A stretch of 5,281 bases of DNA from a virus (Duplodnaviria; Heunggongvirae; Uroviricota; Caudoviricetes): the IMG/VR virus record IMGVR_UViG_2548876700_000007. One strand, written 5' to 3'. A program made the position numbers and the translations under genes. Under the pieces are notes generated by a model. The model made no database searches. It worked only from the letters and a program-made list of their open reading frames with translations, and was not told the DNA's origin. Below are positions 4,715 to 5,281 of the stretch, in pieces; the first letter of the stretch is position 1; the number at the start of each line of letters is the position of its first letter.

Positions 4715-5281
4715 CTACAGATTGCCGTTCAGTTTTCTGGCCAACTCTTCAATAGATGGAGGTGATACGTAATCCGGATTTTTATTCATAAGAAACTGAT
4801 TTTCACAGTACAGGCACCTGCTTTTATGAAAAAATTCATATTCTCTAACCGGGAATGGCTGAAGTATCGATACTATCTTTTGTCCAAAACATTTTGGACA
4901 AAGATGCATGATTATGCTGCCGCCGTTCACGGTTACCTCCTTCGAGTACACAAAAGTTCCCGACTCAAGTTGGCTAAGGATATAACCTTCCGTCTGAGCC
5001 TCAAAGTTTTCAAATTCTGCAATTTTAGCTTTGAGAGAAGCATTTATTTCTTGATAAGTGCCCACCAGCTCAACGAGAGACACGCATTCGCGCTGAATAG
5101 ATGCAAGCTTTGAGTTCAGTTCACCAATAGCCGCATTTACTTCAGCTTGAGTTTTTGCCTCGTTCATTAGTTTTGCAATCTGGGCGGTTTCACGAATAGC
5201 CGTCATTGCTGCCGTTAATTCAGCGATCTGAACCGCCCCGGTTTTCCTGGAGAGTGTTTTATCTGTGAACTCAGGCTGCCA
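4715..5281 (-). CDS. hypothetical coiled-coil protein with C-terminal C4 zinc-ribbon motif; 5' end may lie beyond the window (Met at 5206 is an alternative start)
   Basis: Seen: frame is open from the window edge (5281) to TAG 4717..4715. N-terminal region is Ala/Glu/Lys/Gln-rich and heptad-like (coiled-coil prediction is inference). C-terminus has CPKC...(26 aa)...CLYC. Convergent with the cI-side genes. Confidence 0.65.
   Translation of the reverse strand, partial: WQPEFTDKTLSRKTGAVQIAELTAAMTAIRETAQIAKLMNEAKTQAEVNAAIGELNSKLASIQRECVSLVELVGTYQEINASLKAKIAEFENFEAQTEGYILSQLESGTFVYSKEVTVNGGSIIMHLCPKCFGQKIVSILQPFPVREYEFFHKSRCLYCENQFLMNKNPDYVSPPSIEELARKLNGNL
5062..5069 (-). other. Chi site (5'-GCTGGTGG-3' on - strand)
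   Basis: Seen: ccaccagc on the + strand at 5062-5069, same orientation as the 2892 site. Confidence 0.6.

Follow-up and report, generated by a model that had tools for sequence, protein, structure and literature searches.

A probable Rip1-family defence gene, interrupted at its start codon by IS629, beside the immunity region of a Rac/Qin-like prophage

An open reading frame at the end of the window and its native start

The window, the whole 5,281-nt stretch of IMG/VR virus record IMGVR_UViG_2548876700_000007 analysed here, is the immunity region of a Rac/Qin-like lambdoid prophage. At its far end, at 4715–5228 on the minus strand, lies a gene that probably encodes a member of the Rip1 ('ring interacting pore 1') family, a single-protein, prophage-encoded antiphage defence. 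Its open reading frame (ORF) ends in a TAG codon at 4717–4715, holds an ATG at 5206 from which 163 amino acids (aa) can be read, and is open to the window edge. A first-pass annotation had described it as a partial ORF of at least 188 codons that continues past the window, with 163 aa counted from the Met at 5206.

The native ORF, as read from an uninterrupted allele, differs from both figures. Up to 5228, the window sequence is 100% identical to the gene for WP_000559928.1 of E. coli O55:H7 CB9615, and 4715–5228 carries its codons 2–171 plus the stop. For this intact allele RefSeq calls a 171-aa protein from a GTG equivalent to window 5230–5228, eight codons upstream of Met5206. Because the N-terminus MIAEL(S/T)AAM is kept in homologues down to 50% identity, and because most of the distant homologues in the profile search align from their own first residue, we take this GTG to be the native start.

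What lies upstream of the gene in the window is a mobile element. The last positions, 5229–5281 (minus strand), are filled by the terminal 53 bp of the right end of the insertion sequence IS629 (1310 bp, IS3 family), with its inverted repeat TGAACCGCCCCGG on the plus strand; the match to IS629 copies of Stx phages and to the IS3-family OrfB annotation of BP-4795 is 100%. The element sits between the second and third bases of the native GTG, base 5228 being the last G of the codon. Since the insertion splits the start codon in this way (GT/G), the native product corresponds to neither the 163-aa nor the 188-codon reading: the ATG and its 163-aa frame exist, but the 17–18 codons furthest upstream are IS629 sequence in an accidentally open frame.

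The ORF is nevertheless a real gene. Compared to a 94%-identical allele, the ratio of nonsynonymous to synonymous substitution rates (dN/dS) is 0.14, which indicates purifying selection, and an exhaustive profile search with the family returned 2229 cluster representatives at E ≤ 1e-3; both argue that the frame is more than chance. Among the matches listed, most are 145–180 aa long and aligned over most of their length. A 95-aa ORF runs antisense inside the gene, at 4826–5113 on the plus strand, and is most likely a chance shadow of it.

Homology to Rip1 and architecture of the protein

Scans with Pfam, NCBIfam and PADLOC gave no significant match to the protein, only sub-threshold coiled-coil noise, and the PHROGs family that it hits, phrog_1244 (E = 1.6e-57), is labelled 'unknown function'. 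Close relatives (50–98% identity) were found only in Enterobacteriaceae and are 'hypothetical' where the source names them. The first-pass annotation, which did not recognise the family, was right as far as these resources go, but sequence and fold comparisons connect the protein to Rip1. The family profile matched the Rip1 chain PDB 9oox_L (HK446 Rip1, 164 aa) at E = 2.9e-15, with profile positions 8–151 aligned to chain positions 18–160, a stretch that takes in both CxxC motifs of the protein. BLASTP gave 27% identity over 150 aa to HK446 gp37 (E = 4e-13) and 30% identity over 149 aa to gp30 of phage JBD30 (E = 3e-19), and JBD30 gp30 itself matched the Rip1 chain at E = 1.5e-19. In a translated search of phage genomes, the distant homologues were HkaP of HK620, also present in HK630 and HK629 (29%), the HK446 protein (27%), and homologues of 30% identity in some 30 records of Pseudomonas phages, among them the Mu-like DMS3, JBD30 and MP42.

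Structural comparison likewise points to Rip1. We built an AlphaFold (AF2) model from the family alignment, with a predicted confidence (pLDDT) of 87.4, and the only significant Foldseek matches were the chains of 9oox (E = 6e-7, probability 1.00, TM-score 0.72 on the target), an entry whose title describes Rip1 in complex with the small terminase of phage T6. The model has N-terminal helices and a C-terminal beta domain, as Rip1 does, and the protein is like Rip1 in every respect that could be compared: sequence, fold, motifs, size and behaviour as cargo. Eight residues, Y82, V93, Y94, C110, C113, L122, C138 and C141, are invariant in all four clades, namely the window clade, HK446 Rip1, HkaP and JBD30 gp30.

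In the account given by a review (PMC13434031, summarising Patel et al. 2026, Nature 651:1060), Rip1 is a single protein encoded by a prophage and is not toxic alone. As summarised there, superinfected cells with Rip1 round up, suggesting loss of inner-membrane integrity, and escape mutations map to the portal in Pseudomonas phages or to the small terminase in E. coli phages. The same summary describes a cryo-EM structure in which 12 Rip1 subunits surround an 11-mer small-terminase ring, with the N-terminal amphipathic helix forming a pore and the C-terminal half touching the terminase; it also states that Rip1 complexes cause dye release from liposomes, that Rip1 homologues are widespread in proteobacterial prophages, and that they protect against heterologous phages. 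A meeting report and another 2026 paper agree with the review's account. The Rip1 biology was published in 2026, and the window gene is an uncharacterised, divergent extension of it rather than a discovery. The first-pass suggestion that the gene is exclusion or defence cargo is thereby strengthened, in that its sequence and modelled fold both relate it to an experimentally characterised prophage antiphage defence.

Two parts can be distinguished in the protein. Residues 2–78 (4994–5227, minus strand) form a helical region, with AF2 helices at 2–23 and 27–78, that would by homology be the pore-forming part. The N-terminal half is rich in Ala and Glu and predicted to be helical, in keeping with the first-pass description of an Ala/Glu/Lys-rich helical N-terminal part. 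The helical hydrophobic moment peaks at residues 7–25 (0.44), the most amphipathic 18-residue segment of the protein, and HK446 Rip1 has its peak in the same place (0.42). By homology with Rip1, these helices are better called amphipathic and putatively pore-forming than a generic coiled coil. No transmembrane segment was predicted in the protein, the maximum Kyte–Doolittle 19-mer score being 1.13. Residues 83–149 (4781–4981, minus strand) make up a beta-rich, zinc-ribbon-like domain with AF2 strands at 83–86, 92–100, 103–109, 121–125, 133–138 and 144–149 (pLDDT >90), which would by homology be the ring-contacting part. Direct reading gives a first CxxC knuckle, C110-P-K-C113 (4889–4900, minus strand), and a second, C138-L-Y-C141 (4805–4816, minus strand), 24 residues further on. 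Both are invariant in the family and sit on hairpin knuckles of the beta-rich domain in the AF2 model; the motif had been written as CPKC-X26-CLYC, of which the two CxxC pairs stand and the spacing becomes X24.

Proteins of the DksA/TraR type consist of long helices followed by a C4 zinc motif, a superficial resemblance to the window protein. One could accordingly imagine a zinc-ribbon regulator that binds nucleic acid or RNA polymerase, DksA/TraR-like or antirepressor-like, and the Rip1-like gene does adjoin regulatory genes. We regard this as very improbable. Membership of DksA/TraR was rejected on the grounds that neither Pfam nor NCBIfam gave such a match at the thresholds used, that the Cys-bearing domain is beta-rich, and that no DksA-like structure was among the specific fold matches. 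The antirepressor reading was rejected as well.

Position, distribution and state of this copy

The gene lies beside the repressor and an OL-like region and is transcribed against the local early operon, as the first-pass annotation had it. It is convergent with a cI-like LexA-family repressor gene (HTH_3 plus Peptidase_S24; 3466–4182, plus strand; Pfam and RefSeq annotation) and with a ydfA-like DUF1391 gene (4448–4600, plus strand; Pfam PF07151, E = 6.6e-30, and RefSeq annotation of the identical CB9615 sequence), which is the first gene of a PL-like operon. The 16-bp palindrome GGTAAC-N4-GTTACC occurs on both flanks of cI, as GGTAACAATAGTTACC at 3445–3460 between cro and cI and as its inverted-repeat partner GGTAACTCTTGTTACC at 4256–4271 downstream of cI. 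The second copy, about 450 bp from the Rip1-like gene, is closely preceded by a TTGACT hexamer (4245–4250), and the pair makes the term 'OL-like' reasonable.

The same orientation recurs wherever we looked. In CB9615 the gene stands between DUF1391 and dicB and runs against the PL-like operon; the genes for HK446 Rip1 and HK620/HK630 HkaP likewise run against the pL operon, in a sieB-like slot next to N and cI. An Enterobacter homologue lies in an immunity region, antisense to its neighbours and convergent with the repressor, and a Salmonella homologue lies in an immunity region, antisense, on the cro side. An E. coli homologue of 65% identity, also antisense and in an immunity region, has dicB on one side and a 210-aa gene on the other, after which come DUF1391 and cI. 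The 94%-identical allele immediately follows another repressor in CPS-53/e14-like prophages, and also in the phages PhiR29 and PhiR49. The antisense relation to the flanking early operon held in all contexts that we examined. Of the 5426 complete E. coli genomes, 653 (12%) carry the gene, always on the chromosome, and presence varies among otherwise syntenic prophages: phage Tritos and the second prophage of strain 97-3250 have the same cro-cI-DUF1391 module with ydfB-ydfC in the slot instead, and in Tritos the slot additionally holds DicF. The distribution is that of exchangeable cargo: other prophages have the same immunity module but lack the gene, which accordingly behaves as a moron.

Upstream of the GTG, a leader of about 110 nt (8032–8150 of the CB9615 locus sequence) is conserved above the level of the coding sequence when homologues from E. 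coli, Salmonella and Enterobacter are compared. In this leader CCCCAACAACAA occurs twice as a direct repeat, and there is also a ACAAGGAU motif that we take to resemble a CsrA site. Folding of the leader into a consensus RNA structure gave a weak result (−11.8 kcal/mol with an unfavourable covariation term, 5 sequences), and we claim no structure for it. In the window and in the intact CB9615 locus, an Rfam scan gave no RNA family close to the Rip1-like gene, only sok at a greater distance, and did not detect DicF at the gathering threshold.

Such a strongly conserved leader suggests regulated expression, and homologues bind terminase or portal rings according to the review's summary (PMC13434031). 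Both would suit a role inside the phage's own cycle, in which the protein binds the terminase or portal ring of its own prophage and, once that prophage is induced, tunes packaging or the timing of lysis, with antiphage effects, if any, secondary. However, the gene is dispensable and variably present among prophages of the same backbone, its antisense orientation to the lytic operons fits expression in the lysogen rather than in the lytic cycle, and homologues are stated in that summary to protect against heterologous phages. We therefore think such an internal role improbable, and continue to favour a Rip1-type defence.

The remaining genes of the window belong to the other side of the immunity region and are all on the minus strand: a P22-Cro-like gene (3201–3416), a YdaT-like gene (2779–3204) and a DUF977-containing ORF of 231 aa (2059–2754). 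Immediately 3' of the cI stop codon, direct reading of the sequence shows a hairpin and a T-run at 4190–4212, a hairpin that the consensus terminator scan missed. Between the stop codons of the convergent DUF1391 and Rip1-like genes, the intergenic region (4601–4714) contains a GCCGGA-N12-TCCGGC hairpin, seen by direct reading, and the terminator scan found no canonical intrinsic terminator there. Compared to the CB9615 prophage, the window is 100% identical except for its last 53 bases and a 734-bp deletion. The missing 734 bp (4264–4997 of the CB9615 locus sequence; junction at window 2197–2198, in the replication region) comprise the DUF977 gene's 5' portion and the 3' portion of its 321-aa neighbour, which the CB9615 annotation calls hypothetical and that of strain 97-3250 HTH-containing. 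The 231-aa ORF is probably the product of this deletion, which fuses the two genes. The CB9615 prophage also carries a hokD/sok type I toxin–antitoxin locus (1617–1792 of its locus sequence; Rfam sok, 121.7 bits), outside the window and about 5 kb away from the immunity region.

IS629 has removed the start codon of the Rip1-like gene and displaced its conserved leader of about 110 nt. With the element inside the GTG and the gene cut off from the leader, the copy in the window is probably silent, and it has probably been silenced or altered in one way or another. We reconstructed the full 1310-bp element and its reading frames from an identical IS copy. The Rip1-like frame stays open into IS629 back to a TAA equivalent to 5440, with in-frame ATGs at 5287 and 5305. 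An in-frame fusion of IS629 OrfB to the Rip1-like gene was considered and rejected, as orfB (minus strand) stops at a TGA at 5273–5271 in another frame. The transposase genes of IS629 have the same orientation as the Rip1-like gene, and any expression would depend on transcription that reads through from the element; the product, if any, would either begin at Met9 or have additional N-terminal residues encoded by the IS. Either start would change the presumed pore-forming helix, since the Met9 start or the junction with the extension falls inside it. An outward-reading open frame at the IS629 end (MIWQPEFTDKTLSRKTGAVQ...) joins the neighbouring gene in frame, and residues 1–26 weakly match the starts of phrog_33794 and phrog_31974, which is consistent with families that include ORFs beginning at the IS629 end. 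For annotators, this means that IS629 ends make open frames that fuse with neighbouring genes and give misleading start-codon calls. The insertion is recent, because its junction is found in none of the 5426 complete E. coli genomes and the coding sequence in the window is still 100% identical to the intact allele.

As regards the window genome itself, we lean somewhat towards the view that the locus is a dead remnant, an IS629-inactivated gene in a decaying prophage, whatever the family does elsewhere. The split start codon and the lost leader speak for it, as does the 734-bp deletion, which fuses two replication-region genes in a prophage otherwise 100% identical to that of CB9615 and which, together with the IS629 insertion, suggests a prophage in decay. 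That the junction is absent from the complete genomes adds to this. On the other hand, the coding sequence is 100% intact, read-through transcription is possible with the transposase genes pointing towards the gene, and in-frame ATGs are available at 5206, 5287 and 5305. This view of one copy is compatible with the Rip1 explanation and does not compete with it on what the family does.

It is tempting to speculate further about the clade in which the window gene falls. The Enterobacteriaceae 'MIAEL' clade has a near-invariant extra Cys48, and some of its members, including the window gene, have an extra C-terminal tail. Its 110-nt leader, with two CCCCAACAACAA repeats, is conserved above the level of the coding sequence. 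The clade could be a functionally distinct Rip1 subfamily that recognises another phage ring or oligomer and is under leader-based post-transcriptional control. The IS629 allele would then be no simple knockout but a deregulated form, or an N-terminally extended hybrid with altered activity. We consider this unlikely, though less so than the other roles discussed here for the family.

Proposed mechanism and comparison with known systems

For the intact 171-aa allele, we propose that a lysogen would make the protein from the gene's own transcription unit, antisense to the repressed early operon, and that the protein would be harmless by itself. When a superinfecting phage reaches late gene expression, the C-terminal beta/zinc-ribbon domain would bind a ring oligomer of that phage, the small terminase or, for some phages, the portal. 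This binding would template a ring of about 12 Rip1 subunits around the phage ring, the N-terminal amphipathic helices would then make an inner-membrane pore, and the permeabilised cell would die before infectious progeny are completed, which amounts to abortive infection. For the protein of the window gene, we infer the trigger, ring formation, pore formation and phage protection from its relationship to Rip1.

Several points weigh against carrying the Rip1 mechanism over to this gene. Identity to the characterised Rip1 proteins is only 27–30%. The amphipathicity of the N-terminal part is only modestly above that of shuffled controls (z = 1.8), and zinc binding is read from the motif only. 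The mechanism itself is taken from a review summary, a meeting report and the title of a PDB entry. A consensus scan upstream of the intact allele found no sigma-70-like promoter, and that the gene has its own promoter is presumed. The window copy may make no product at all. Finally, for the JBD30 homologue, a different mode of action is on record: the JBD30 structure paper states, citing Tsao et al. 2018, that gp30 'blocks phage genome injection', which is not a late action.

The last point would favour a SieB-like early superinfection exclusion, acting at or just after DNA entry by an injection block or an early abort, with no sensing of late rings. The 'putative superinfection exclusion protein' annotation of HK620 hkaP, which lies in a sieB-like slot, points in the same direction. 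Yet later work, as summarised in the review (PMC13434031), finds the escape mutations in the late proteins portal and small terminase, and the structure of a Rip1–terminase complex has been solved (9oox; PMC13434031). The window protein has no predicted transmembrane segment, and Pfam gave no SieB family match at E ≤ 0.1; SieB membership was rejected on these two grounds. We find early exclusion improbable, if marginally less so than the internal phage role, and a late-acting, Rip1-type defence remains the reading that we prefer.

If this reading is right, sensing of assembled phage rings and killing through a pore would be the likely function of a gene found in about 12% of complete E. coli genomes, the O157:H7 and O55:H7 lineages among them, for which RefSeq has only the label 'hypothetical protein'. 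In Rac/Qin-like and CPS-53-like prophages, the position next to the immunity region would hold Rip1-type defence as exchangeable cargo. For phage therapy or typing of Shiga toxin-producing E. coli (STEC), it could matter whether a strain has an intact or an IS-disrupted copy.

SieB of lambda and P22 and RexAB are exclusion or abortive-infection functions that are expressed from the prophage and encoded beside the immunity region; sieB is transcribed against pL, and SieB and RexB are membrane proteins. The window gene shares this setting, whereas its protein has no relationship to them in sequence or fold and lacks a predicted transmembrane segment. HkaP of HK620 (also of HK630 and HK629) is 29% identical over 91% of the protein (tblastn E = 1e-12), and it too combines a sieB-like slot with annotation as a putative superinfection exclusion protein. 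Its gene lies between cIII and hkaQ/N, unlike the window gene, which comes directly after the first PL gene. A literature search on hkaP found no functional data; one HK620 paper uses its flanking intergenic regions as insertion sites.

Outside the lambdoid phages, the tail assembly blocker Tab of JBD26 (PMC10884400) is encoded at the same Casadabanvirus terminase-gene hotspot as a Rip1 homologue, on the minus strand and with its own promoter, and it acts on late virion proteins. Tab is an 83-aa protein described as having no known relatives. It differs in that it acts through the tape measure protein to stop tail assembly, and in having a partner gene, anti-Tab, in the same JBD26 slot (PMC10884400); no such partner is evident beside the window gene. 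The JBD30 slot at 13213–13707 is the Tab slot of JBD26, a defence hotspot with interchangeable minus-strand cargo. The homologue in it, JBD30 gp30 (164 aa), is listed in the JBD30 structure paper as a phage-blocking moron, again citing Tsao et al. 2018. Similar to the window gene, gp30 is a reverse-oriented single-gene insertion, with the sequence match given above, the same conserved residues and reported phage resistance. It belongs, however, to a Mu-like phage of another host and lies in the late operon rather than in the immunity region, and in the review's summary the escape mutations of Pseudomonas phages fall in the portal, not the small terminase (PMC13434031).

HK446 Rip1 (gp37; PDB 9oox) differs from the window protein in several ways: identity is 27% only, the window subfamily begins 10 residues later in the alignment and has the near-invariant Cys48 that HK446 Rip1 lacks, the window protein and its closest relatives carry the extra C-terminal tail (NPDYVSPPSIEELARKLNGNL), and the window copy is cut by IS629. 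Nevertheless, the two are of similar length (164 versus 171 aa), alignable nearly from end to end, and alike in having N-terminal helices, a C-terminal beta domain and two CxxC motifs. Both are encoded in lambdoid prophages, beside the immunity region and antisense to a pL-type operon, and HK446 Rip1 is the sole specific structural match to the window protein.
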